Below are positions 1 to 50,891 of a stretch of 64,000 bases of DNA, piece after piece. The number at the start of each line of letters is the position of its first letter. Within the stretch, counting starts at the first letter, position 1. The notes under the pieces were generated by a model. It ran no database searches and was not told the origin of the DNA. It saw only the letters and a program-made list of their open reading frames with translations. A program made the translations under genes and the position numbers. The stretch lies in IMG/VR virus record IMGVR_UViG_3300010354_000047, positions 72,374 through 136,373 of that record; one strand, given 5' to 3'. This stretch comes from a virus.

Positions 1-15
1 AAGACTCTGGGACCG

Positions 16-507
16 ATGGTTTCCGGATTTCTAGAGAACTCTTACGGAGTTCCGAGAGAAAGTTCCCAAATGCTTTCTGAAGCTTTGGTTCAGGCTGTGA
101 CAGCCGTCGGCCTTAACTACAAGAAAATCAAGTCCCCTGAAGACCTTGTTCGAAACCTCTTAATTGAATCCTCAGCAGCAATTCTTGGTAAGAGCGCCCA
201 CTCCGGGGCCGAAGAATTTCTGTCTTCTGCCGAAGGAAAGGAGATGTTAAAGAGTGCTCTTCCCCTTTTAGCTGGAAAGTTTACGGGGATTGGGGTTGCA
301 TTTGCGGGCTCCAGATTGCCCAGTCTTTCTCAGCTTTCCCGAATAGTCGCTGAACGTTCACAAAGCGACATTCAGAAACTTCGTGGCTTTATGAACCCAC
401 AGATGTTTAACGCATCGGAGGAGAAAACTATTGAGGATATCTCCCAGACACTGACTGATATCTTCATTTTGTCATTACTAAGGTCTTCACGTCTTTTGGG
501 TCAATGA
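16..507 (+). CDS. Hypothetical protein, possibly the 3' part of a gene starting before the window
   Basis: Frame is open back to position 1; its stop overlaps the next ATG (ATGA); no recognisable motif. Confidence 0.6.
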   Translation: MVSGFLENSYGVPRESSQMLSEALVQAVTAVGLNYKKIKSPEDLVRNLLIESSAAILGKSAHSGAEEFLSSAEGKEMLKSALPLLAGKFTGIGVAFAGSRLPSLSQLSRIVAERSQSDIQKLRGFMNPQMFNASEEKTIEDISQTLTDIFILSLLRSSRLLGQ

Positions 508-782
508 AATTCTTCAATGAGAGGGCCTTCCTGGTTCGTTCTCTGATCGGCATCTTCGCCGTTCAATTTGTTACCGTGGGTTATCAAACCTTCCTCTGCC
601 AACGCTCTGTGCTCACTGTGAAGGAGTCCGATCGCGTTTCCCTAATCTGCACGAATGCAGCAAACTCCTACAACGAAACCGGAAAACTGGCTTTGGCCAC
701 AATTTTGGCCCTTCTAGTTCCTTCTTCGAAGCAAGAGTCTCCCGAAAGTAGTGAAAAAGAGGATAATTCGAAGGAAGGGTAA
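504..782 (+). CDS. Small membrane protein with two hydrophobic segments
   Basis: Hydrophobic stretches LIGIFAVQFVTVG and LALATILALLVP; charged C-terminus. Confidence 0.6.
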   Translation: MKFFNERAFLVRSLIGIFAVQFVTVGYQTFLCQRSVLTVKESDRVSLICTNAANSYNETGKLALATILALLVPSSKQESPESSEKEDNSKEG

Positions 783-3710: not shown

Positions 3711-4061
3711 ATGTTCGGTAGCTTTCCTGAAGACATCCTGAGTCAGTTTCAAAGAGACTACGCAGAGCGCTTTGACAAAGAAGATCTTGAGTGCAACAAA
3801 CCTCGGTCAACTCCGAGCCACCCTAGCAGCTCACATATCGTGAAAGCTTGCTACCCTGGGGCTCCTGAAGGAGGTAAACTAATACGCTTTGGTCAACAAG
3901 GCGTTAAAGGTTCTCCCAAGAAAGAGGGAGAATCCGAAGCCTATCGTAAGAGGCGTGAATCCTTTAAGGCGAGACACGCAAAGAATATAGCGAAAGGGAA
4001 GTCCTCTGCTGCCTACTGGGCGGACATTGTGAAATGGAGCGAACCCGATTTTGAGGGGTAA
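3711..4061 (+). CDS. Small basic phage protein (IRFGQQG/SFKARH family)
   Basis: KLIRFGQQG..RRESFKARHAKNIAKGKSSAAYWADIVKW; MFGSFPED leader. Confidence 0.75.
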   Translation: MFGSFPEDILSQFQRDYAERFDKEDLECNKPRSTPSHPSSSHIVKACYPGAPEGGKLIRFGQQGVKGSPKKEGESEAYRKRRESFKARHAKNIAKGKSSAAYWADIVKWSEPDFEG

Positions 4062-4085
4062 TTGCTCTTTTATTATTGTGCTAAA

Positions 4086-4535
4086 ATGATCAGAAATTTC
4101 AACCTTCCTTGTGTGGACAACCTTCGAGAGGGAATCGACTACCGACTAGTGGAGTGGGATTTCGCATCCCAGCAACCATCCCGAACTCCTGGGACTCCTT
4201 GCCCTCCTGGAGAAAAGGTTGTTTTTGGAGTTTGTCGCAAGGTCGGTGACTCAGGGGAAAAAGACTTTGACTCCGAAAAGAAAACTTCCCAAGAATCTCA
4301 GCTTGAAGAGGAAGCCACACGTCAAGGTAAGAAAGTTTCTACCAAGGAAGAGGCTACCGCCGCTAACGTAAAAGGCTTTGAGACAGGTGGGAAGAAGTAT
4401 GGCTGGGCAATTAAAAACGGAAAACCTGTCATTGTTGAATGGGGTTCCGTAGCAGGTACAAAGAAGAAGGGTAAGGAAAAAACAACTGCCCCTGAAGCAC
4501 CAGCAGCAGCTACCACAACTCCGGCTCCTAAGTAA
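4086..4535 (+). CDS. Hypothetical basic protein
   Basis: Start moved to the in-frame ATG 4086, which lies 30 nt after GGGTAATT (4056); WDF followed by a two-Cys segment. Confidence 0.65.
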   Translation: MIRNFNLPCVDNLREGIDYRLVEWDFASQQPSRTPGTPCPPGEKVVFGVCRKVGDSGEKDFDSEKKTSQESQLEEEATRQGKKVSTKEEATAANVKGFETGGKKYGWAIKNGKPVIVEWGSVAGTKKKGKEKTTAPEAPAAATTTPAPK

Positions 4536-4541
4536 TTGAAA

Positions 4542-4549
4542 GGGTAAAT
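4542..4549 (+). promoter_or_regulatory. Putative late promoter GGGTAAAT
   Basis: Intergenic, 29 nt before ATG 4571. Confidence 0.7.
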
Positions 4550-4570
4550 AACTTTATAGACTAAACTTAT

Positions 4571-5416
4571 ATGGACCTTCCCACTAAGATTTCCGCCGAT
4601 TACTTTCGAGGAACAGTTATGGAACCCGAACGAGTTTCCCCTTTTCGTTCAAATTACACCGAGTACGAGCGGCTAGGAATGAAGCACGAGGAGCTCTCAA
4701 AAAGGATTGAGGCTCTTCAAGATAAGATGAAGCTCTCTCGTCAAAACGGCGCCTTCCAAAACCTTCAGATGCAGATGTCTGAGGTGAAACAACTCGTCAA
4801 GGATCGAGAGGAAATCGATGCTAAGATGTCGACACTTGACTTGGCAAGAAAGAAGGACGACGATTACAGAGCTGCTGCGGGCTACGAAGCATCCTACGGT
4901 GAGTGCCTGGAATCTTTTGACTCCCGTGTCGAAAAGCTCGAAAGTCTTCTAGAAGAGTTCTCTGAGCTCGCTGCGAGCGAAAACTTTGACTTCACTCGTT
5001 GCGTTCGCCCCGATGGTTCTGTATATGGGACAAGAGGAAAGTGCAAGAAAGGTTCTGAAACTAGCGCCCCGGTCAAAGAAGTAAAAGTGTCATCAAAAGC
5101 TCTCAGACTTTCTGTAAGGGAGAAGTCTTCACACCTAAATGAAGTTAGAAAGCAGTTATCAGCTGGTGAAAAGAAGTTCAGGGCGATGGTCAAGGAGGCC
5201 AAAAAGAATCCCTCCCCTGAAAAGAAAGAGGAGCTGAAACTGGCCCAGAAAGCTTTAGCCCAGAAACAAAGAGAGGTTGCCAGAGCAGAAAGAGAAGCAG
5301 AGAAAGCCCTAAGACAGTGGAGTTCTGCTCGCAAAAAAGAAGAAAGAGCGAAGATGAACCCTGCGCAACTGCAGTCTGAAAGAAAGCTAGATAGAATTAT
5401 TCGGGAACGAGGCTGA
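4571..5416 (+). CDS. Coiled-coil protein with FDFxRCxRPDG Cys module and basic C-terminus
   Basis: NFDFTRCVRPDGSVYGTRGKCKKGSE between an acidic and a Lys/Arg-rich helical region. Confidence 0.75.
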   Translation: MDLPTKISADYFRGTVMEPERVSPFRSNYTEYERLGMKHEELSKRIEALQDKMKLSRQNGAFQNLQMQMSEVKQLVKDREEIDAKMSTLDLARKKDDDYRAAAGYEASYGECLESFDSRVEKLESLLEEFSELAASENFDFTRCVRPDGSVYGTRGKCKKGSETSAPVKEVKVSSKALRLSVREKSSHLNEVRKQLSAGEKKFRAMVKEAKKNPSPEKKEELKLAQKALAQKQREVARAEREAEKALRQWSSARKKEERAKMNPAQLQSERKLDRIIRERG

Positions 5417-5422
5417 CCTGAA

Positions 5423-6748
5423 ATGGCACGTTGTAACAAAGGAAAAAGTTGCAAGGGTACGTGCATCCAGAGAAGCGATAATTGCTTGGCCCCACTTGGA
5501 AAAAACCTCTCCAAACAACTAGATGTGGCCTCAGAAAAGATGGAGGGCCTCGGAGATATCTTTCTTCGAAAAATTGTTACTCCCGGAAAGCCCCCCTCAC
5601 CTCCTGCCCCCCTTGTAAACAAAGAAACCAACAAGCAAGTTCAAAAACTTGTAGACCAACTCGGACTCGGCCCTCTGACCGTTAAAGAAGTTGGCAATAG
5701 TTTCGAAGTCTACAAGAGAGAAGCTCTGAGGCAGCTTAAGGAACTGGAGAATAAACCAAATAAGACGAGCGCAGATAGAACAAAAGAAAACCAAATTCGA
5801 GATGCTTTGCTAGCGGTTTGGGAGAATAAGACCAATGTTAGCCGCGGAATGTTAATCGATCGCCTGGACGCCCTAGACTTCGATAACACATTTAAGCCAA
5901 ACTATAAGACAGGAAAGTACGACTGGGACAGTTCCTACGCCTCCGGTTCAAGACACCTTGGTTCAGGTGGCTTCGCGAGTGTAGTGGCTTCTAAAGAGCC
6001 TCCCCCGGTTGTAGTTAAGAGAGGGGAAGTCAGCGAAAATGAAATTCAGATCTTGAAAAAACTGAAAGGCAAGGATCTATCCCCTGAGCTAATAGCTGCG
6101 GAGATGGACACAAAGTCGGGGATAGAGAGTAAAGAAGCGGACATTGATTTTTACTCGGGTCGAATCGCCATGTCCCGCGTCTCCGGGAAAGCTGCAGAGG
6201 AATTCAATACGTACAACGACCGTGTTGGTGGCACAACTGTCGGGGACTCTTACTGGGCTCTTCGCCGTCGACTCCATAGCAATGGGGTAGCCCACAACGA
6301 TGCGCACATCGGAAACGTTCTGATCGACGATTCCGGAAAGTCTCGCTTTGTAGATTTCGGGATTTCCCAGGACGACCCCCGCGCTGCCCTCTCTGAAGCC
6401 ATTGGAGTCTATGCGAATCGCAGATTTCTTCCCGCAGGTTCTGTAACAAAGTCCCCCGTAGATAGACAGTCGGGTGACTGGCAAGGAAGACGCTTCGACC
6501 AGTTCACCGAGCCTTTATCTAAGGCGACGGAACCTAGCAATAAATCTAACTATGCCAGAGTAATCCAGAATCGGACAAAGGTTTACCAGGCCCTAAAAGA
6601 GCTAGGTTTATCTAACGACGATATAGCGGAAGTTGTGATCCACGGTATCAGGAGACCCCTTAGCTCTTTCAATAGTGGACCCTGGGGAAAGATTAGTAAA
6701 GAAGAAGCCATGAAGTTGATTCAGCTCGTTTACCAAGGTGTGGAATAA
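5423..6748 (+). CDS. Protein-kinase-like enzyme with N-terminal four-Cys module
   Basis: G-loop LGSGGFASV, VVVK, catalytic HNDAHIGNV, DFG; N-terminus CNKGKSCKGTCIQRSDNC. Confidence 0.85.
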   Translation: MARCNKGKSCKGTCIQRSDNCLAPLGKNLSKQLDVASEKMEGLGDIFLRKIVTPGKPPSPPAPLVNKETNKQVQKLVDQLGLGPLTVKEVGNSFEVYKREALRQLKELENKPNKTSADRTKENQIRDALLAVWENKTNVSRGMLIDRLDALDFDNTFKPNYKTGKYDWDSSYASGSRHLGSGGFASVVASKEPPPVVVKRGEVSENEIQILKKLKGKDLSPELIAAEMDTKSGIESKEADIDFYSGRIAMSRVSGKAAEEFNTYNDRVGGTTVGDSYWALRRRLHSNGVAHNDAHIGNVLIDDSGKSRFVDFGISQDDPRAALSEAIGVYANRRFLPAGSVTKSPVDRQSGDWQGRRFDQFTEPLSKATEPSNKSNYARVIQNRTKVYQALKELGLSNDDIAEVVIHGIRRPLSSFNSGPWGKISKEEAMKLIQLVYQGVE

Positions 6749-6918
6749 TGTCAAAAGAAAACGACCAGAAGTATCTAGACTTGATGTCCCTGTACAAAAA
6801 GCTTCGGAGAAGCCCAAAAACAGACGCCCAGTCCCAAAAAGTCCTTGACAAAGCACTGAAATTCTCTAAGGATAACGCCATTAGCCCCGAAGCTCTAGAA
6901 GCTGCTAGATACTTTTAA
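6748..6918 (+). CDS. 56-aa helical protein coupled to the kinase (not in ORF track)
   Basis: MSKENDQKYLDLMSLYKKLRRSPKTDAQSQKVLDKALKFSKDNAISPEALEAARYF; TAATG overlap; fills the gap before the next promoter. Confidence 0.7.
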   Translation: MSKENDQKYLDLMSLYKKLRRSPKTDAQSQKVLDKALKFSKDNAISPEALEAARYF

Positions 6919-6920
6919 GC

Positions 6921-6928
6921 GGGTAAAG
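6921..6928 (+). promoter_or_regulatory. Putative late promoter GGGTAAAG
   Basis: Intergenic, 51 nt before ATG 6972. Confidence 0.6.
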
Positions 6929-6971
6929 TAAGGAGTGCCTCTGCACAACCTTCTCTTTCGCTCTTTAGCAA

Positions 6972-9900
6972 ATGTCCGCAAAACGTATAATCCTGAAGCG
7001 ATCTTCGATTGCAGGGAAGAGGCCAACAGCTGAAAACCTTTCCCCTGGTGAGATCGGTCTCAACACGAATAGTACTGAACCAGGAGCGTTCTTTCAGACA
7101 ACAGACGGAAGAACTGTAAAAGTTGGTCCCACATCATATCTGTCCTACCCTCCCACAGAATTCCCGGAGAAGGGAGAACTTTGGTTCGATAGTGAAGACG
7201 GAACCCTAAAAGTAGGGACGGCCGAACATGAATGGATGTCTATTTCCGCTCCTTTTCTTGGTGGAGAAGGCCCCATTGTATTCGTTGCCCCAGAGTTCCA
7301 TTTTTCTACAGATTCCTTGAGTAATGATGGTCAAGCTTTGCCTTTTCAGACCGTTTCCCGAGCTATTCTTGAACTTTCGAAAATATACCTAAGTCGCGTT
7401 CTTAGTGGTTTTTCTACACGAGATGAAAGTAAGCGGTACACAATTTTCATCTTCCCATCCCAGTCAATTGCCAACAATAGCCCGGGAGTTTCCCCAGAAG
7501 AGTTTAACCTTGATCTATCAAACAAGGTTGGAAACGACATAACCATACCCGAACTTGAACAATTCAATCCTGTCACAGGCGGTATCGTCGTCCCCTTTGG
7601 TATTACTCTTCGAGGGATAGATCTAAAGAAAAGTGTAATATCCCCTTCTTATGTTCCTTCTTACTCTAATCCCTTCTACCCTACCGGCCTTCAGGGTGTT
7701 GACCAACCCTTGAGTGCCATTTTTAAGTGTGGAGGGAATGTTTACGCCGAGGACTTTTCTGTAGTCGATAAACTCTCAGAGAGAGTTATCGTGGGAGTCA
7801 TTGACGATAATGATTTGGCAGTGTTTCGTTCAGAAAGACCCCACGGACTTCGAGTCGACGACTTTGTCACTGTCTCGTATTTCGCAACTGTTGATCAGAG
7901 CACCGGAACATTTCAGCCTGGTAACTATTACGCAGTTCCCGTTGACTCCTATCACTTCTACCTTTCCACAGGTCCACAAACCGAGAGCCAGGCCGCTGAG
8001 TATATCCTTTTTCAGAGCATTCCTGCGTTAGTGAATGACTCTAACCCGAAGTTCTTAGTCACCAACTCTCTCAAGTCTGCCCATCGGCTTAGCCTCTTTA
8101 GGAACGCATCTCTTTCAGAAATTCAAGAATACTTTGTAAAGGTTCAGAAGGCTTTTCCAAAGGTTTTTGGAGGAAAGGTCACAGATACACCCCAAATAGT
8201 GGATCAAGGGGACTATGTTATTGTCGGACCAGTCGGGGCCTACCCTCAGAACGAAGCCTCAAACACAACTAAAAACTCTTCCTTTTACGCCAACCAAGTG
8301 AACATGCGTTCCGAGTACGGAATGTGCTGGGGTGACTTTGATGGTCGACTTGTTTCAGGGTTTAAGTCGGTTGTTGCAAATGCGTGTACAGCTATAACCT
8401 TGCAGAATGACCCTTGCGTATACGAAGTATATACCACACTTGTGAACCCGGATACGAATCTTCCCGAGAAAAAGTGGTGGGGGCTCACCCAAGCTGTCTA
8501 TCTCTCGACTCCAGTGGAACAAAGGCCGGCATCTATCGTAGACGTTCCGGTTGTTCAACAATTGGATGTTTTGAATACAACTCCAATTAACAATATACGT
8601 TACCATTACGAGAACCTGAAAACAGAAGCAGGGAAAAGTATTGGTATCGTGAATACCGAGAAAGACTTTCGCCACTTTGGTTTTCGCGTTCAAAATGGTG
8701 CTTACGGGCAATTCCAGTCGACTTATTGCATTGGAGCTGCAGTCGGTGTGTGGGCACTGAATGGGGGAACTTGCAGCTTGACAAACAGTACTACAAACTT
8801 TGGATCCGTTGCCTTCAAAGCCGAAGGATTTCTAGGAATCAATACAATCGGAGGGGCAAAGGCGAACGGAAAAGGTTTCGTATTTGAAGGGATTCAGCGG
8901 CCTCTCGCCATCACAAAGTCTCAAGCAGAAAACACTTCCAACAAAAAGATTCTATCCCTTGGCGGGAGAATAACCAACATATACCTCGATGAAAGTGATC
9001 CAAACATTCAGATTGTTGAACTTAGCTCCGACTTTTCTCCTTGTTACTTACTTCCGTTTTCTCTGAAACCCGGATCGGCCCTTTGGGTTGAATCTGAGTC
9101 TTGTACCTACCGGGGGTTTTTGGCCACAGACGGTGGCCCAACGATTTTCACTGGAATAGATAGCCCGAACTTTGCTAAAATTCGAATTCGGTCCTCTGAT
9201 AGCACAATCCCAAACAACACCGACCTTCTTCCGGTTTTGGGAGTTCCCTACGTTCGTAGATTTAGTGACCCAAGGCAAGACTTCGAAAGAAGCTACAGTA
9301 TCTGTCTGAAGAATACCTTCCAGAATGCTATCTCTCCTCAAATTGGTTCTGTCCTTAGACTCAATCAAACCAGTCAGCAACTGGGGTCTTCCTCTCTGAC
9401 TCCAAACGTTCAGTTTGATCCAGGAATTCTAGGGGGTTGGGGTCGGGTCTTCACCGTGGATGCAGTTGAGACTGGTGGGCTTGGTGCTTCGCCTCAGTTC
9501 AATTATACTATAAGCGACCCTAGCCAAGACCAGACTTATTACGTAGCAATAACAGGGAGCGACATGAGCCGCCCATGGGTACAGGGTCTGAACTTTCGGA
9601 ACTCGCAAGGGGATTATGTCACTTTTGAGAACAGAAACTGGTATGCTGCTGAGAACAACATTTGGGAATCTCTATATTACGGAGACTCTTCAAGTTTTAC
9701 GGAAAACTTTGGGCCATACTCCATAGCCCCTATTGAGAGGTGCTCGCCTTTTGTGGATACGAGTGTTCTCGAAAAGCAGGAAAAGGTCCTGGATACTTAT
9801 CAAGGGGTTTACGCTCCTGATGACTTTGTCGGAAATCCGGAGTATGTCGGCTACGAAAACGGAACTTATTTTCGTGGTTCAACCGAGCCCTATCCGACTT

Positions 9901-11735
9901 ACGATACTAAAAATGTATATGATGACGACGACAGCTCAGAGAGCATGGGTCTCTGCCTGAAGGATATTGCCAATGGGGCAACTACTTCTACAGTCTCAGG
10001 CATCACAGTTATTCAGACTGGGACAGCCGCGAGTTCAACCTCTCGCTATCGTCCAGAAGTTATCGAGTTTTCCGTGCTCTCTTCGACAGAAATCGAAAAC
10101 CCTCGACAAACAGTCTCAGTCGTTCGGCTCAGTTCGACTGAAGGTGAGGAATACATTCGTGTAACTAATCTGAACGGAACAATTGTTCGCGGTATCCGTC
10201 TTAATTACCAAAACAGCTTCTACCCTTCTACCGCTCCAGGTTTCAATTGGCCCCAGCTAACGACCGTTACGGTTTGCTCCACAAACCCAATCGCTGAGAC
10301 TGAACTTTACGACCCTGATTGGTCAAATACGAAGAGGGCTGTTTATCGCTTTTTCCAGGTGATGGGTTATAGTCCTGAGATCATGAAGCCATACCTCACT
10401 CCTCAGTATTGGGGAGAGAGATTGCTTTCGGTTTCCGTTCTCGAAGGGACCCTTCCGGAAAACGGTTATGCTCTAACCACTGATAAGTGGCCTCTCGAGT
10501 TTAACCAACCGTCTGCAGTGATTGCCAACACTCACACATGGGCTTACACTGGCTACTACAATTACTCTCGCGGCCTTCCCGAGTTTCAGACAAATGATTT
10601 CACCAAGAAATTGGCGGCGGACTTCCAGGCTACAACGACCTGGAGCGGACGCCTGACTGTAACAGGGATAAATGACAAAGGTGAAATCGTTCAGTTTGGA
10701 CCACAAAGGCAAGCTCTTACGGCCAACTTCTACGAAGACACATACCCTACCACCAATGTTGCAAATCAACAAATCTACGAAGAGCAACCCTATGTGGAAT
10801 TCCCGGCTCAAGTCGTCGTCTACTCTGTCGACGACATTTCCTCACTATTCGACGGAGTTATCGACACTTTCGATCTACTGAGAAGCGGGCTTGCGATTCC
10901 CCCAGAACAGCTCAGTGTAGAATCCTTATTTGTTGCCCTTGGCGCTTCAATGCAGAAGCCAGTGGAAAGTTACACACTTCTTAACAACAAGATCAAATTC
11001 GCTTCACCTCCTCCAGAGGGTACGAATTGCAACATTCGGGTAGTCACTAGTGTAGATTCTTCTCGCACCTTGGTCACTGTTCCGCTTGAGTTCCAGGAGC
11101 AGTTTGATGGCTCGCGAACAACGTTTACTGCCGTCTCTTCGAGCGTGGATATAACCCCTCTCGAAATCACATCGAACGGTACCTTTGTTTTCTTGGGTGG
11201 TGTTGAGCAAATCCCGGTATCAGATGTTAACCCCTCTCTGCCATTCTCTTATTCGATTGAGAGAACTTCTCCGACGACTGTTCAGTTTTCTTTCACTGGG
11301 CCTCCTCCTGCTGGGACAACTCTAGATGTCAGAACAATCTGTTCAGGTTCGTACTGGTCACTACGTGGAATCTACCCTGTAGAAGTCTACTCGCTTGACT
11401 CAATTGCTTGCGACTTTAACGGTGCTAATCTATCTTTCAACCTCACTTATGACGGGTTGCTGGTGAACCCTAATGCTGTCACACAGGATAACCTAATCGT
11501 CAGCCTTGGTGGATCGATTCAAATTCCTGGAGTTTCTTACACTGTGGAAAACTCCATTCTCACTTTCCTTGACCCGGTAGATGCGCCGCAACCAGGTACG
11601 ACCATTAACCTTCGAGTGATTGCGAATGCCGAGTTTATCTCTTGCCAAGATCAATCGGTTTACGGTTCCGGATTCCTGAGATGGGGACCCGGCCTCGTTC
11701 TCACTCTTGCTAACGATGCTGGACTGTTAGGGTGA
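6972..11735 (+). CDS. Large tail fibre / virion structural protein
   Basis: N-terminal ILKRSS..KRP..L.PGEIGLN fibre anchor; central region paralogous to 11777; three C-terminal F(D/N)G..F.L...LGG..Q.P...Y beta-sandwich repeats typical of cyanophage structural proteins. Confidence 0.8.
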   Translation: MSAKRIILKRSSIAGKRPTAENLSPGEIGLNTNSTEPGAFFQTTDGRTVKVGPTSYLSYPPTEFPEKGELWFDSEDGTLKVGTAEHEWMSISAPFLGGEGPIVFVAPEFHFSTDSLSNDGQALPFQTVSRAILELSKIYLSRVLSGFSTRDESKRYTIFIFPSQSIANNSPGVSPEEFNLDLSNKVGNDITIPELEQFNPVTGGIVVPFGITLRGIDLKKSVISPSYVPSYSNPFYPTGLQGVDQPLSAIFKCGGNVYAEDFSVVDKLSERVIVGVIDDNDLAVFRSERPHGLRVDDFVTVSYFATVDQSTGTFQPGNYYAVPVDSYHFYLSTGPQTESQAAEYILFQSIPALVNDSNPKFLVTNSLKSAHRLSLFRNASLSEIQEYFVKVQKAFPKVFGGKVTDTPQIVDQGDYVIVGPVGAYPQNEASNTTKNSSFYANQVNMRSEYGMCWGDFDGRLVSGFKSVVANACTAITLQNDPCVYEVYTTLVNPDTNLPEKKWWGLTQAVYLSTPVEQRPASIVDVPVVQQLDVLNTTPINNIRYHYENLKTEAGKSIGIVNTEKDFRHFGFRVQNGAYGQFQSTYCIGAAVGVWALNGGTCSLTNSTTNFGSVAFKAEGFLGINTIGGAKANGKGFVFEGIQRPLAITKSQAENTSNKKILSLGGRITNIYLDESDPNIQIVELSSDFSPCYLLPFSLKPGSALWVESESCTYRGFLATDGGPTIFTGIDSPNFAKIRIRSSDSTIPNNTDLLPVLGVPYVRRFSDPRQDFERSYSICLKNTFQNAISPQIGSVLRLNQTSQQLGSSSLTPNVQFDPGILGGWGRVFTVDAVETGGLGASPQFNYTISDPSQDQTYYVAITGSDMSRPWVQGLNFRNSQGDYVTFENRNWYAAENNIWESLYYGDSSSFTENFGPYSIAPIERCSPFVDTSVLEKQEKVLDTYQGVYAPDDFVGNPEYVGYENGTYFRGSTEPYPTYDTKNVYDDDDSSESMGLCLKDIANGATTSTVSGITVIQTGTAASSTSRYRPEVIEFSVLSSTEIENPRQTVSVVRLSSTEGEEYIRVTNLNGTIVRGIRLNYQNSFYPSTAPGFNWPQLTTVTVCSTNPIAETELYDPDWSNTKRAVYRFFQVMGYSPEIMKPYLTPQYWGERLLSVSVLEGTLPENGYALTTDKWPLEFNQPSAVIANTHTWAYTGYYNYSRGLPEFQTNDFTKKLAADFQATTTWSGRLTVTGINDKGEIVQFGPQRQALTANFYEDTYPTTNVANQQIYEEQPYVEFPAQVVVYSVDDISSLFDGVIDTFDLLRSGLAIPPEQLSVESLFVALGASMQKPVESYTLLNNKIKFASPPPEGTNCNIRVVTSVDSSRTLVTVPLEFQEQFDGSRTTFTAVSSSVDITPLEITSNGTFVFLGGVEQIPVSDVNPSLPFSYSIERTSPTTVQFSFTGPPPAGTTLDVRTICSGSYWSLRGIYPVEVYSLDSIACDFNGANLSFNLTYDGLLVNPNAVTQDNLIVSLGGSIQIPGVSYTVENSILTFLDPVDAPQPGTTINLRVIANAEFISCQDQSVYGSGFLRWGPGLVLTLANDAGLLG

Positions 11736-23253: not shown

Positions 23254-23281
23254 CTTTACCCAGACTACCCCCTGCTAAACT
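23254..23281. promoter_or_regulatory. Overlapping divergent promoters: GGGTAAAG (- strand) and CTTTAC-N16-TAAACT (+ strand)
   Basis: Minus-strand motif 23261-23254 is 32 nt before ATG 23229; plus-strand elements at 23254-59 and 23276-81. Confidence 0.6.
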
Positions 23282-46790: not shown

Positions 46791-47456
46791 ATGGCGAAGT
46801 TACCCGAAGATCACTCAATAAAAGCTCACAAAGACATCGTCGGGCAAACCATGCACAGATGGAAACACCACGACCCGAAACCTTTGCATAGCGGTCGAGG
46901 AAAGGGTGGAAAGGAAGGGAAAGTTGTTAAGTCAAAAGAGCAAGCCATCGCTATAGCTCTTAGCATGGCTGGGAGATCAAAAGATCACTCTGAAAGATTG
47001 AACTCCTTAGGCTTTTCGGAAGAGTCTGTGCGATCTGTGAACGAGATACTAAGCGGAAACTTTGACTTCACACTTTGCCAAAGGCCAAACGGAAGCTTAT
47101 ATGGTACATCTGGAAAGTGTAGAAAGGGGTCGGAAGTGAATCCCAAAGAGTCTCGGCCAGGAACCTCTTCTGGTGGGGGGTCAAAAAAGACTCTTTCGGA
47201 GATGGACGCTCACATCAAAAGTTTGTACAAGAAAGAGACGGAAGCAAGAAATAACGGAGACGATTCTAAAGCCAGAGAATATATGAGGGAATCCGTGAAA
47301 GTCCTCAAAGCCTTGAATGAACGCCGAGACCTCTTGAATCAGAGACTTCGGGAACTTCAGGATAAAATGGATGACGCTGTGACAATCAGGGATCAACAAA
47401 GATTGTCGACAGCAGTAAGTAGCATTCTAAGCGAGTTGAGTGGGTTAAAGGGGTAA
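46791..47456 (+). CDS. Basic protein with DUF6496-like N-domain and FDFxxCxRPNG Cys module
   Basis: LHSG...GKVVKSKEQAIAIALS; NFDFTLCQRPNGSLYGTSGKCRKGSE. Confidence 0.75.
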   Translation: MAKLPEDHSIKAHKDIVGQTMHRWKHHDPKPLHSGRGKGGKEGKVVKSKEQAIAIALSMAGRSKDHSERLNSLGFSEESVRSVNEILSGNFDFTLCQRPNGSLYGTSGKCRKGSEVNPKESRPGTSSGGGSKKTLSEMDAHIKSLYKKETEARNNGDDSKAREYMRESVKVLKALNERRDLLNQRLRELQDKMDDAVTIRDQQRLSTAVSSILSELSGLKG

Positions 47457-47463
47457 AGAACGT

Positions 47464-47952
47464 ATGACGACTCCCAGCTTCTCAAAAGAATCTCTCGAAA
47501 GGGTTAGGTCTCTCCTTCAAAGGGATGTAGACTGGGAAGGTCAGTTCTTGACCGGAACTTCTAAAGGAGCTTTCCCTTTGGTTGATCAAGTTCTCAAGCC
47601 GAGAGGTTTGCAAGGAATGGACATTGACAACAGGCCTGGTTTACAGCGCGGGAGTCAAGGAAAAAGACGGGGAAGTTCCCTCTCAATCGCACAAGTTGCT
47701 CTTCCCAACGGAAACCCTCAATCGGGTCCTCGGTCACTCTCTACGAATCGCGGACTTGCAATGTTTGAAGAAGCTTGCAAAAAACGTCCGCAACCGAGAA
47801 GCCCCGAGCAAAACCAAGCGACGCAAGAGGCACAACAGGCGGCTCAACGACAGAACCAAACTTTTGACAAGATACCTGAGAAAAAAGTTGAAGAAATGGC
47901 TAAGAAGGGGGGAGAGGCAGAACGAAAGCCCCCACTACCTTACTGCAGCTAA
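47464..47952 (+). CDS. Hypothetical basic protein
   Basis: PSFSKESL leader; GGGTAAAG 13 nt upstream; TAATG coupling to the next gene. Confidence 0.65.
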   Translation: MTTPSFSKESLERVRSLLQRDVDWEGQFLTGTSKGAFPLVDQVLKPRGLQGMDIDNRPGLQRGSQGKRRGSSLSIAQVALPNGNPQSGPRSLSTNRGLAMFEEACKKRPQPRSPEQNQATQEAQQAAQRQNQTFDKIPEKKVEEMAKKGGEAERKPPLPYCS

Positions 47953-48695
47953 TGTACGGATCTTTCTCTCCTGAAGCCTTGCAGTTTTGGGACTTTGTTC
48001 GATGCCAAAGACCGAATGGGACCTTTTATGGGACTTCCGGTCGGTGTAAGTCCGGTGTCCAAGTTTCCTCAAAACCTCAAAAACTTTCCGGAAGCCTACT
48101 TGGGGCGGGAAAAGAGAGCAAAGTATATGACATTGGCAGGGACAGAGCACTCAAGGTGAGTACGGCAAACTATGAAAGTCTAGAAACACATCAGATTGCT
48201 TCTCAGCTCGGAGTCGCTCCAAGGCTGTACGCTCACGGAAAGATGCGTGATGGTAGAAACTTTCAGATCGTTGAGAAGGTTAAGACAAGCGATATCCATG
48301 GACTGGGACAACCCGGATCTAGGGCCAAGGAAATTGAAGACCTTGATGAAAATCAGCTATTTCGTGAAAAAGAGGCTTACAAAGCCAGTCTGAAACTTAA
48401 TGCGGGCGGGGTTGCGCACGGGGACCTCCACGGAGGAAATATAAAGTGGGACGAGAACAATCAGAAAGCTATCCTTCTTGATTTTGATAATGCCACTAAG
48501 AGCTGGAAGGACGCTCGCGCTGAAGCTGCGAGTACGCTAAATACCATAGGTATTCGCCTCGAGAACTCGGGATATTACGATGAGGCCGACGAGGTGTACT
48601 CAAAAAGTTCGATAATTTCCCGGATATCCTCGATAAAAATGTCAAAGGCTATCGAAGAGACTTCCGGTCTGCTAGATTCTGTTTTTCCGGGGTGA
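47952..48695 (+). CDS. Protein-kinase-like enzyme with WDFxRCxRPNG Cys module
   Basis: LGAGKESKVY, ALK, HGDLHGGNI, LDFD. Confidence 0.85.
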   Translation: MYGSFSPEALQFWDFVRCQRPNGTFYGTSGRCKSGVQVSSKPQKLSGSLLGAGKESKVYDIGRDRALKVSTANYESLETHQIASQLGVAPRLYAHGKMRDGRNFQIVEKVKTSDIHGLGQPGSRAKEIEDLDENQLFREKEAYKASLKLNAGGVAHGDLHGGNIKWDENNQKAILLDFDNATKSWKDARAEAASTLNTIGIRLENSGYYDEADEVYSKSSIISRISSIKMSKAIEETSGLLDSVFPG

Positions 48696-48779: not shown

Positions 48780-49169
48780 ATGACACGCAATTCTTCACTC
48801 GTTCCTAGCAGCAGTATCTTCGATAACTCCAGCCACGATTTGGTAGAGTTTTTGATGAATAGGGGTAGCTTTGGCTTCCCCTCTGAGACCTACTTTAGAT
48901 CCCGCTCCCTGGTCGTTAGACCGGTGAAGACAGAGGAGTCTGAAGCGATCATCGAGATTGAGACCCCTGGAATCAACCCCTCTGATATATCTGTTACAAT
49001 CGAAGGCAAGTCTCTTACGGTAAAGACACCAAGAGGTGATGCCTATGTGACTATTGGTCAGAGGTTAAAGTCTGAGGACGCTACTGCTTCCTTGAAGCAT
49101 GGCCTTCTCACGATCAGAGTTCCAAAAAGGGATTCTAAGATCGTAGAGGTCCAAGTTCACGAAGAGTGA
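48780..49169 (+). CDS. Small heat shock protein (Hsp20/alpha-crystallin)
   Basis: IETPGI...DISVTIEG..LTV ... ASLKHGLLTIRVPK. Confidence 0.9.
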   Translation: MTRNSSLVPSSSIFDNSSHDLVEFLMNRGSFGFPSETYFRSRSLVVRPVKTEESEAIIEIETPGINPSDISVTIEGKSLTVKTPRGDAYVTIGQRLKSEDATASLKHGLLTIRVPKRDSKIVEVQVHEE

Positions 49170-49178
49170 ATAGTTTCG

Positions 49179-49203
49179 GCCCCGCCTTTCGGTGGGGCTT
49201 TTT
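49179..49203 (+). terminator. Intrinsic terminator between convergent genes
   Basis: GCCCCGCC-TTTC-GGTGGGGC followed by TTTTT. Confidence 0.85.
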
Positions 49204-49363
49204 AGTATGCCATCAAAGCGTAGACTTCTTCCGCAGAGAGCCCACCATTTTTCTCAACTGCTTGAAGGATTTTCTCAGCCTTTTCATCAGCAGCAGGTGT
49301 GTTCATGCGAACGAGACCTTTTCTCTTTACCATTGCTCGAAAATTAGCGCTTTGTTCTTTCAT
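49202..49363 (-). CDS. 53-aa helical protein coupled to the kinase (not in ORF track)
   Basis: MKEQSANFRAMVKRKGLVRMNTPAADEKAEKILQAVEKNGGLSAEEVYALMAY; ATGA overlap with the kinase stop; ends at the terminator. Confidence 0.65.
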   Translation of the reverse strand: MKEQSANFRAMVKRKGLVRMNTPAADEKAEKILQAVEKNGGLSAEEVYALMAY

Positions 49364-50136
49364 TTTAGGTTCTGAATTTCTTGAAGGTACTCTTCTGCTA
49401 ACCTAACTTTCTTAGCCTTATTCGCTTTACTCGTTGATTTCGTGATCTTCTTATACTCTTCTAGGTATTTGTTGACAATCTGAAAGTACGGATCCGTAGA
49501 GAGTTCGGGATTGTCCCACCCAATTAGCTTCGCTATCTTTGACAAGTCCTGCAAAACTCGATTCGGCTGCACGGAGGTCTTAACAATCAATCCAAAGTCA
49601 ACCAGCTTCACATTGTTGTTGTCCACAAGAAACTGCTGACTATGTGCGTCACCATGGGCATAACCTATTCTATGCAGGTCTCGCAGAGCGTAAGCGGCTT
49701 TTCTAGCCTGGGTAGCATTCATGATAGCCTCCCCTTCTTCTTTCCCGAAACTCTTCCAAAGGGGTTTTCCTTTGGCTAATTCCATCTCAAGATGCTTCGG
49801 ACTTGAAGAAATAATTCTGGGGGAATGGCCTAACTCCCCCATGCGAGTCGCGACCTGAATCTCTTCGTCTCCAAACTCCGAAGACTCATCCTTCATAATC
49901 TTGACAACTCTCTTTCCGTCGGGGCTTATACGAACCTCCCCTTGGTAACCTTCCGCAAGTTTGTTCCAACTGCTGTAATCAGGCTCTTGGTTCAGTCTCC
50001 CTGAAGCTTGCTCCAGAACAGCTCCCCATTTTCCGGGGAGAGCTTTACGGCATTTTTTGCTGCTAGAAACGCAGGCTCCTCCGCAGCTTATGCCTTTTGA
50101 GCAGTTTAGCTTTCCTCTCACGATATTATAGCCCAT
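49360..50136 (-). CDS. Protein-kinase-like enzyme with N-terminal four-Cys module
   Basis: CSKGISCGGACVSSSKKC; LAEGYQGEV, VVK, HGDAHSQQ, DFG; alternative start GTG 50121. Confidence 0.82.
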   Translation of the reverse strand: MGYNIVRGKLNCSKGISCGGACVSSSKKCRKALPGKWGAVLEQASGRLNQEPDYSSWNKLAEGYQGEVRISPDGKRVVKIMKDESSEFGDEEIQVATRMGELGHSPRIISSSPKHLEMELAKGKPLWKSFGKEEGEAIMNATQARKAAYALRDLHRIGYAHGDAHSQQFLVDNNNVKLVDFGLIVKTSVQPNRVLQDLSKIAKLIGWDNPELSTDPYFQIVNKYLEEYKKITKSTSKANKAKKVRLAEEYLQEIQNLK

Positions 50137-50837
50137 CCATCATTCTCCCCATCTACCGTCCATCTCGAATCGAGAAGGTTCTTACTGTATTTCTTGGTCT
50201 TTCCGTCTATCTTTGGATAGGTTCCTGAAGCGTGATCAATTTCCCCCCACGGATCATGAACAATATACCAACAACCCCCTGGAGCTTTTGGATCCAGTTC
50301 CTTACCGATCACAATAAGCCAGTGCCCCCCACCAGAGGGACGAGATGCTGGACCTTTGTGTAGGATACCAATTGGAACAGGAATTCCTTTACTCAGTTGA
50401 GAGTCAAGAAGTGAAAAGGTACCATTTGTGACAAATTTCGCAGGTAAGCCAAAAGCTTTTAGCGTTTGAATTTGGATATGTGCGTCCGTAGTGTCACCTG
50501 ATTTGAAAACTTCTCGAACATATTTATCGTCCCCTCGAGAACCTGGAAGGGTCCCGGGCTTCATGGCCTCTAGAAGCATTGCGCAGCTGCTGGAAAAGCA
50601 AGTGCGATAGGCATCTCGATAGTTGTCCCTTTGGGAGAAGTAAGGGACTTTTAGCAGAATGTTCTTGTTCATGGGAGTCCTAAACTTTCTAACCCATTTC
50701 GCCTCATCAGTGAGAAGTTCAGAATCTGCATCTCTAACAGACTTTTCGAAATCCAAAAGGGCATCTTTTTGGTTAGGGTTCTCTGGTCTAAAGTTTGACA
50801 CAAAGTCCAACAACTTTCCAGGGGGAAAGGCAGGCAT
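50118..50837 (-). CDS. C39-like cysteine peptidase (putative cell wall hydrolase/endolysin)
   Basis: VPYFSQRDN..RTCFSSSCAM, GGGHWLIVIG, VHDPWG (Cys-His-Asp). Confidence 0.85.
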   Translation of the reverse strand: MPAFPPGKLLDFVSNFRPENPNQKDALLDFEKSVRDADSELLTDEAKWVRKFRTPMNKNILLKVPYFSQRDNYRDAYRTCFSSSCAMLLEAMKPGTLPGSRGDDKYVREVFKSGDTTDAHIQIQTLKAFGLPAKFVTNGTFSLLDSQLSKGIPVPIGILHKGPASRPSGGGHWLIVIGKELDPKAPGGCWYIVHDPWGEIDHASGTYPKIDGKTKKYSKNLLDSRWTVDGENDGWAIIS

Positions 50838-50858: not shown

Positions 50859-50891
50859 GTTTACCCTCTCTCTTTGTGACTCCGGGTAAAA
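50859..50891. promoter_or_regulatory. Back-to-back late promoters GGGTAAAC (-) and GGGTAAAA (+)
   Basis: 29 nt before ATG 50837 (-) and 30 nt before GTG 50914 (+). Confidence 0.75.

Follow-up and report, generated by a model that had tools for sequence, protein, structure and literature searches.

We analysed a 64,000-nucleotide stretch of viral DNA (the window), comprising bases 72374-136373 of the 136,373-base IMG/VR virus contig IMGVR_UViG_3300010354_000047 (CheckV completeness 61%), in which two protein-kinase-like genes, kinase 1 and kinase 2, are each followed by a short, overlapping open reading frame (ORF). A sequence-only reading of this stretch had proposed that both kinases carry the same N-terminal four-cysteine module, that each is paired with a small helical partner, and that the pairs are packaged effectors with cognate inhibitors laid out as in polymorphic toxin systems. 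The four ORFs and their overlapping stop and start codons are confirmed (Table 1): the ATG of small ORF 1 shares one base with the stop codon of kinase 1 (TAATG), and small ORF 2 overlaps kinase 2 by 4 nt (ATGA). The nearest cultured relative of the contig is the Synechococcus phage S-CBWM1, whose primase is 57% identical, and by this likeness the window is part of an uncultured S-CBWM1 relative.

From their sequences, kinases 1 and 2 are intact protein-kinase-like enzymes. The Pfam Pkinase model matches kinase 1 with an E value of 4.7e-5 (23.4 bits against a cut-off of 31.7) and kinase 2 with 4e-4; on kinase 2, Pfam ABC1 gives E 1.8e-4 (21.2 bits against 22.9) and NCBIfam Bud32 gives E 5.9e-8, far under its cut-off, as are all NCBIfam matches. 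A match to PHROG 'kinase' 18305 has an E value of 9.6e-7. Since both proteins fall under every curated threshold, we regard them as members of the protein-kinase-like superfamily, the Pfam clan of PF00069, PF01636 and PF03109, without a named family of their own; kinase 3, a further enzyme in the window, alone passes a curated cut-off (Pfam APH, E 1.4e-5, 25.4 bits against 23.2). Kinases 1 and 2 are 25% identical over 113 residues (E 5e-6), and their N-terminal modules are 35% identical over 37 residues (E 1e-4). Among 30 aligned kinase 1 sequences, K199, D293, N298 and D311 are invariant and G180 and G182 invariant or nearly so. The sequence of kinase 2 reads GYQGEV, VVK, HGD and DFG, with Gln in place of the catalytic-loop Asn, a substitution also present in its 57% identical relative; the two relatives of kinase 2 that were found, at this identity, lie in viral loci L039/L061 and L062. 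Single-protein scans of IMG/VR with kinases 1 and 2 returned no close relatives, and alignment-based searches were needed to find them.

The AlphaFold2 (AF2) model of kinase 1 has a mean predicted local distance difference test (pLDDT) score of 87.6, is confident from residue 67 to the end and presents a bilobal kinase fold. An N-terminal tag (residues 1-42) and a low-confidence linker (37-61) precede a helical domain (67-156), the kinase-like core (~160-340) and a C-terminal helical domain (353-436). The model matches at least 500 kinase chains of the Protein Data Bank (PDB) at E <= 0.001, the best being CK2alpha (E 1.6e-7), with template modelling scores of 0.28-0.36 that are low owing to the extra domains.

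The tag on both kinases, which we call module A, is recognized by a profile built from 43 instances, so that the proposed common module holds (Table 1). As a hallmark of the kinase pairs it fares less well: it is indeed shared by otherwise different proteins, but it is not specific to these two kinases. Module A has five matches in the contig, on kinase 1, kinase 2, a 223-aa protein, a 540-aa protein and a frameshifted paralogue of the 540-aa protein. A second module, B, is a two-cysteine hairpin with the consensus F-x-R-C-x-R-P-x-G-x-x-Y-G-T-x-G-x-C and has eight matches in the contig, including kinase 3 (profile E 1.3e-19), three further ORFs of the window and an NMNAT-like enzyme with 47% identity to S-CBWM1 gp39. 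Both modules are basic, cysteine-rich and ~20-45 residues long. The expected diversity of C-terminal parts is thus borne out, with kinases, the NMNAT-like enzyme, the 540-aa and 223-aa proteins and others standing behind them. Among the 120 kinase 1 homologues listed, 100 have module A at the N-terminus and five more have a two-cysteine variant; the other 15 are mostly gene calls that begin inside or past the module. Since module B replaces A in two relatives of the kinase 1 family (L027, L039), we view the modules as interchangeable heads on one enzyme family. S-CBWM1 has seven profile matches, with A on gp113, gp161, gp162, gp174 and gp106 and B on gp39 and gp165, and profile searches of the T4-like cyanophages S-CREM2 and S-CRM01, and of S-TIM5, matched neither module.

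Folded alone with an alignment, module A is predicted to form a hairpin followed by a helix (pLDDT 84.2), and in the whole-kinase model it is joined to a linker with pLDDT below 50. Foldseek found no match to this isolated fold in the PDB, and the best VIA-align hit among 48,161 chains (Z 2.1, rmsd 3.4 over 37 residues) excludes no fold. Of 135 distinct instances of module A, 123 have all four cysteines, 11 lack Cys1 and Cys3 together and one lacks Cys1 alone, a pattern of loss that suggests two cysteine pairs rather than one obligatory four-ligand site. Existing annotation hides both the tag and the partner. The deposited kinase 1 in IMG starts at residue 22, without the tag region at window positions 5423-5485, and the GenBank starts of gp113 (70464) and gp161 (117887) fall inside or past their modules (70395-70481 and 117827-117901). 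Because these three kinase gene calls cut module A, the tag cannot be seen in the proteins as deposited, and the small genes carry the label 'hypothetical'.

In a set of 50 related loci, a recurring ORF of ~53 residues was found directly after kinase genes. A hidden Markov model (HMM) of this family, made from 27 distinct seeds and run against 12,939 frames at E <1e-3, gave 43 matches, 35 of which are seeds by construction. Small ORF 1, which is not a seed, matches with an E value of 1.5e-16 (65 bits against a larger profile), and the other non-seed matches include S-CRM01 g129 (6e-15), S-CREM2 gp13 (9e-14) and S-CBWM1 gp114 (2.4e-7). Within this sample of loci, not de-replicated and collected through their kinases, 35 of the 43 matches directly follow a full kinase ORF and four follow a 98-aa tag-only remnant; of the remaining four, one sits behind a module B protein without a kinase match (L042), one lies just before a kinase, and two, from near-identical contigs, are on the strand opposite to kinase ORFs. 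Conversely, a partner is present for 35 of 66 kinase ORFs or fragments (27 with tag A, two with tag B and six untagged). After tagged ORFs without a kinase match the family was not found, save once (L042). The small family tracks the kinase domain and not the tag: it occurs after kinases with tag A, with tag B and with no tag, including those of S-CRM01 and S-CREM2. Within this sample, the proposed coupling of the small ORFs to kinase genes is supported.

Both small ORFs are, by their substitution patterns, real genes under purifying selection that are coupled to kinases. Within the family the ratio of nonsynonymous to synonymous substitution rates (dN/dS) is 0.03-0.14 in four close pairs; the proportions of nonsynonymous (pN) and synonymous (pS) differences are 0.24 and 0.92 for small ORF 1 against its counterpart in locus L014, and 0.25 and 0.90 for small ORF 2. 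Public collections already contain both small proteins as gene-call products (P0121; P0126). A profile search of 1.84 billion representatives returned 162 clusters, 66 of them below 1e-10; among the best 150 of the 162, 143 are at most 110 aa long, and 127 of these 143 have a penultimate Tyr. Nearly all stand alone as proteins of 44-102 residues, with the domain running to the C-terminus. In the family alignment Y55 and K17 are invariant, R20 is nearly so (90% or more) and S46 is nearly invariant. Pfam, PHROGs and NCBIfam hold no family for either small ORF, a Thioredoxin_12 row at E 0.078 was set aside as noise, and an ESM Atlas search with small ORF 1 gave no usable match.

Small ORF 2 is less readily placed. 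A 64% identical ORF occupies the same place, with the same ATGA overlap, after the kinase 2 relatives in L061 and L062, and small ORF 2 has family-like length and position, but its Tyr is last rather than penultimate. It was missed in the search of 12,939 frames, and a protein-collection search with it found only itself. The likeness of the two small ORFs that had been seen by eye is not recovered by BLASTP; small ORF 2 scores 9.0-9.7 bits against the family HMM in a two-sequence test, and hhalign assigns a probability of 43-57%, collinear over residues 6-49.

To describe the partner's binding mode, we turn to a co-fold of kinase 1 with small ORF 1, run with three controls. It scored 0.85, against 0.01 for the best control. 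Of 80 solved complexes, 58 reach the mark used for such co-folds, as do 2 of 110 mismatched pairs; this calibration is only rough here because each chain was given its own unpaired alignment. Three runs share at least 90% of their contacts, with a partner pLDDT of at least 88. Confident contacts on the kinase side fall on the Gly-rich loop (177-187), 197, K199, 250-253, D293, 295-298, 310-311 and 313-314. On the partner side, Tyr55 contacts 187, 197, 199, 221, 250, 310 and 311, Lys17 contacts 311 and 313, and Arg20 contacts 293 and 314. We take the contacted residues, from general knowledge of kinase structures, to surround the nucleotide and the catalytic centre, and on this basis interpret the partner as a plug of the ATP site. 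Among solved structures, the sole sequence matches to the partner are designed helices, so the score is unlikely to reflect a memorized complex. The small ORF 1 product thus probably caps the active site of kinase 1, a prediction of the model that fits the inhibitor role first suggested for it. Precedents for such a mode exist: the small helical inhibitor p27Kip1 blocks ATP on CDK2 with a tyrosine in the adenine pocket, and the epsilon antitoxin blocks ATP binding to the zeta toxin, a P-loop kinase encoded beside it. In contrast to epsilon/zeta, the present pair joins a kinase of protein-kinase-like fold to a putative inhibitor encoded by the second gene, is carried by a phage and probably enters the virion.

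The small protein could also be an activating subunit, a substrate or pseudosubstrate, or an assembly chaperone rather than an off-switch. Tight linkage and translational coupling suit any stoichiometric partner, substrates too bind at the cleft, and the nearly invariant S46 and the conserved Tyr could accept phosphate. In the model, however, the partner covers the Gly-rich loop and Tyr55 touches K199, D311 and M250, so that it would compete with ATP, and S46 lies outside the confident contacts. We consider a positive or neutral role unlikely.

Published work on S-CBWM1 bears on what the modules do. Passages of PMC10665884 that list virion enzymes report APH, ChoK and Rio2 kinases together with NMNAT in S-CBWM1 virions, and a passage of PMC9602691 repeats the finding for NMNAT. 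The three kinases (gp113, RIO-like; gp161, ChoK-like; gp162, APH-like) share lineage and module A with those described here. gp113 holds the position of kinase 1 and is followed by the small-family member gp114, and at ~309 aa it is shorter than kinase 1 (441 aa), which has extra helical domains. All four named enzymes carry a module, GenBank labels a fifth tagged protein, gp174, 'virion structural protein', and the untagged PknB-like gp173 is absent from the virion enzymes named in these passages of PMC10665884. Because the tagged S-CBWM1 proteins are thus largely reported or annotated as virion proteins (at least five of seven, by the passages cited and GenBank), the modules are probably loading tags. 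For S-CREM2, Table 3 of PMC10665884 lists the small-family protein gp13 (one unique peptide) beside the kinase of that phage in the virion proteome, which lends weak support to co-packaging. The passages of the later papers that deal with S-CBWM1 discuss neither module nor gp114, and a full-text literature search, whose reach excluded supplements and two key subscription papers, returned no description of either the modules or the small family.

Taken together, these observations lead us to propose, with confidence about evenly balanced, that a tag-linker-kinase protein is loaded into the virion with its cleft blocked by the coupled small protein. The phage would make protein-kinase-like enzymes composed of a tag, a flexible linker and the enzyme, the tag being module A, with its four-Cys hairpin and helix, or the two-Cys hairpin of module B instead. 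The tag would serve as a loading handle that takes late-made, non-structural enzymes into the virion, from which they would enter the next host with the DNA. The translationally coupled helical hairpin of ~53 residues would bind the catalytic cleft of the kinase, placing its penultimate Tyr among nucleotide-pocket residues and Lys17 and Arg20 on the DFG and catalytic aspartates, and this plug would hold the kinase inactive in the cell that makes it, and probably also inside the particle. We infer each of these functional steps, namely tag loading, inhibition by the partner, co-packaging and release of the plug. A stronger version is tentative and leans towards the improbable: modules A and B would be transferable head-loading tags, the kinase would be co-packaged with a plug that is shed only after injection, a pre-made and safely inactivated enzyme would thus be delivered that turns on in the new host, and the phage would possess a cargo system unrelated to that of T4 and a new class of ATP-site inhibitor.

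Several points weigh against the proposal that tagged, plugged kinases are packaged. The capped active site is seen in a model only, and the relation of small ORF 2 to the small family is borderline. Of the 66 kinase ORFs or fragments, 31 lack a partner, among them kinase 3, 24 that carry tag A, and S-CBWM1 gp161 and gp162; since these last two are virion kinases, the plug is not obligatory for kinases in the virion. A module can also lie within a protein, as it does at residue 143 in ORF 4571-5416 and at residue 73 in the 540-aa protein. The S-CBWM1 proteomics, which the packaging idea fits, is second-hand, taken from passages of later papers that name three kinases and NMNAT. The virion kinases of S-CREM2 and S-CRM01 match neither module (0 matches), so tags are not needed for kinase packaging in general. 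Finally, the authors of PMC10665884 remark in the relevant passage that abundant proteins may simply stay in a virion preparation, and carry-over is also raised in a passage of PMC9602691.

Some of these points would suit a different account of the modules, as metal-binding, nucleic-acid-binding or regulatory domains of enzymes that act late inside the cell, their presence in virions being carry-over. The basic, cysteine-rich character of the modules, their occasional position in mid-protein, the kinases that T4-like cyanophages pack without them, and the caution of both papers all favour it. The run of tagged proteins among the named or annotated virion proteins of S-CBWM1, with gp173 unnamed, stands against it, and the 11 variants of module A without Cys1 and Cys3 are ill-suited to an obligatory four-ligand metal site. 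This account, too, seems to us improbable.

The strict polymorphic toxin-immunity arrangement, in which kinase toxins aimed at competitors or the host would be matched by cognate immunity proteins and their C-termini swapped at one locus, is very improbable: a shared N-terminal module on differing C-terminal domains, a small gene downstream of kinases and four loci whose tag-only ORF and small gene resemble orphan immunity genes do recall it, but 19 proteins scanned with Pfam show no MuF, Rhs, PT-TG or similar trafficking domain, the small genes are restricted to kinases and make up a single conserved family instead of a range of cognate ones, many tagged kinases have no partner, and the genes lie in a lytic-phage late region with conserved synteny, not in a variable toxin locus. 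In MuF-type phage polymorphic toxins, an N-terminal part associated with the head is joined to enzymatic C-termini that vary, and a small immunity gene lies downstream; unlike them, the tagged proteins have no MuF domain and their partner family is kinase-specific. The idea of an effector plus inhibitor that are packaged survives, partly supported, and membership in a polymorphic toxin system does not.

Phage enzymes carried in the particle are known mainly from T4, N4 and jumbo phages, and to our knowledge the selection of such cargo is understood only for T4. As described in PMC9026906, the T4 capsid targeting sequence is a short N-terminal element common to unrelated head cargo (IPI-III, Alt) that is ejected into the host; it consists of ~10 residues, none of them cysteine, attaches to the scaffolding core and is removed by the prohead protease. 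The modules resemble it in being shared by unrelated proteins, and T4 cargo likewise includes host-modifying enzymes, in a set that varies among relatives (PMC9026906). Unlike the T4 element, they are structured, ~20-45 residues long, carry two or four cysteines, are unrelated in sequence and are sometimes internal, which the T4 element is not; they do not qualify as T4-type, IPI-III-like propeptides of ~10 residues. Among the relatives of the small family, S-CRM01 g129 and S-CREM2 gp13, both annotated as 'hypothetical proteins', likewise directly follow a virion-associated kinase, and differ from small ORF 1 in being 78 aa long with an N-terminal extension and in following kinases of 755-821 aa that have neither module.

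Virion cargo tagging and enzyme-inhibitor pairing are kinds of system already known, and the features described here, which are real, vary them in a new way; we give roughly even chances to the mechanism proposed above. If so, abundant cyanophages would have a second tag system, unrelated to that of T4, and the tags would explain why kinases and NMNAT recur in purified cyanophage virions. The tags would also give a means of loading cyanophage particles with foreign proteins. In the small partner, protein-kinase-like enzymes would have a new inhibitor that is compact, genetically encoded and clear in its mode of binding, and with it the virus could bring an inactive enzyme to its next host.

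The genomic setting of the tagged genes is shared with S-CBWM1. The contig and S-CBWM1 have the same order of terminase large subunit (58% identical), PhoH-like (58%) and tail-fibre (44%) genes, with tagged genes placed between terminase/PhoH and the tail fibre in both; the tail-fibre identity extends over 1601 residues against S-CBWM1 71792-76492 (gp116). Kinase 1 and small ORF 1 lie directly 5' of the tail-fibre gene. In S-CBWM1, gp113 and gp114, which overlap by 4 nt, hold the equivalent place before gp116, with an extra small gene, gp115, between. A blastn search of window positions 4000-8000 against isolated phages gave no match.

Table 1. Tagged genes, kinase pairs and neighbouring features, in window coordinates.
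Feature	Position	Strand	Basis
C-terminal part of 223-aa module A protein; start and tag lie 164 nt before the window	1..507	+	Profile E 1.8e-10; no Pfam or PHROG family
Module B protein, 306 aa	2689..3609	+	Profile E 1.1e-19; no Pfam or PHROG family
GGGTAAA, 29 nt before ORF 4571-5416 (kinase 1 operon)	4542..4548	+	Motif scan
Module B protein, 281 aa, coiled-coil-like, basic; first gene of kinase 1 operon	4571..5416	+	Profile E 7.8e-22 at 4973-5071; no Pfam family
Module A on kinase 1 (C-x5-C-x3-C-x6-C hairpin, then helix)	5423..5548	+	Profile E 7e-18, contig (G000) 77793-77921
Kinase 1, 441 aa	5423..6748	+	ORF; 125 homologues; AF2 model
Small ORF 1, 56 aa, family member, predicted active-site plug	6748..6918	+	Family HMM; co-fold
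Tail-fibre gene, gp116 counterpart, after the kinase 1 pair	6972..11735	+	PHROG 529 E 2.2e-52
Module B protein, 221 aa, N-terminal DUF6496	46791..47456	+	Profile E 1.3e-20; Pfam DUF6496 E 1.8e-6
Kinase 3, 247 aa, N-terminal module B, no small partner after	47952..48695	+	Pfam APH
Small ORF 2, 53 aa, partner of kinase 2	49202..49363	-	Conserved position; borderline family score
Kinase 2, 258 aa, compact Bud32/RIO-like, module A at residues 12-29	49360..50136	-	ORF; Pfam; NCBIfam
Module A on kinase 2	49987..50115	-	Profile E 1.6e-15, contig (G000) 122360-122488
Endolysin-like gene directly upstream of kinase 2, same strand	50118..50837	-	PHROG 10051 endolysin E 5e-71
GGGTAAA, 29 nt before endolysin gene (kinase 2 operon)	50860..50866	-	Motif scan

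The motif GGGTAAA, which had been placed upstream of both pairs, does precede both operons, but it does not stand directly before the kinases. The window holds 20 copies against 8.4 expected, a number reached in 0 of 100 shuffles. Besides the two in Table 1, copies lie at 777, 2658, 6921, 16134, 26836, 50884 and 51501 on the plus strand and at 23261 on the minus strand, with more upstream in the contig. Across the contig, ~18 copies start 27-39 nt upstream of the initiation codon of an ORF of at least 50 aa, and the ORFs behind them include tail-fibre genes and operons with tagged genes. The motif is a candidate promoter element of the phage; the genome of S-CBWM1 has genes for two sigma factors.

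Some related loci show further arrangements of the tagged genes. L040, a 13 kb locus on another viral contig, contains seven consecutive ORFs that are each headed by module A; five of the seven match the kinase profile and small-family genes follow two of those five, making an array of tagged kinase paralogues. In L020, L025, L028 and L035 (~1781-2295), a leader-only ORF of 98 aa, consisting of module A, is followed by a small-family gene, and L024 and L033, close relatives of these contigs, have a 406-aa kinase at that place. The leader-only loci look like the outcome of a kinase deletion that spared tag and partner.

The 540-aa protein is akin to S-CBWM1 gp106 and gp174. An 'HNH-like' label, given by eye for a D-x-E-H...N motif, was rejected, as the protein falls in no family of Pfam or PHROG, and a BLASTP comparison with the Cas9-like S-CREM2 gp12 gave an E value of 0.49. 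Its paralogue is split by a frame shift in the run AAAAAGGGGG (L064 1530-1541; contig 67529-67540, ~4.8 kb ahead of the window); removal of one G would let the frame encode a complete module A, and a sequencing error, a pseudogene and a programmed shift are all possible. The 540-aa and 223-aa tag-A proteins are each followed by an ORF that overlaps by 4 nt, of 111 aa (contig 70823-71158) and 92 aa (window 504-782), respectively. Neither ORF has a Pfam family, and the 92-aa product seems hydrophobic. An Hsp20-like small heat-shock gene (48780-49169, plus strand; Pfam HSP20, E 9.7e-6) separates kinase 3 from the kinase 2 pair.

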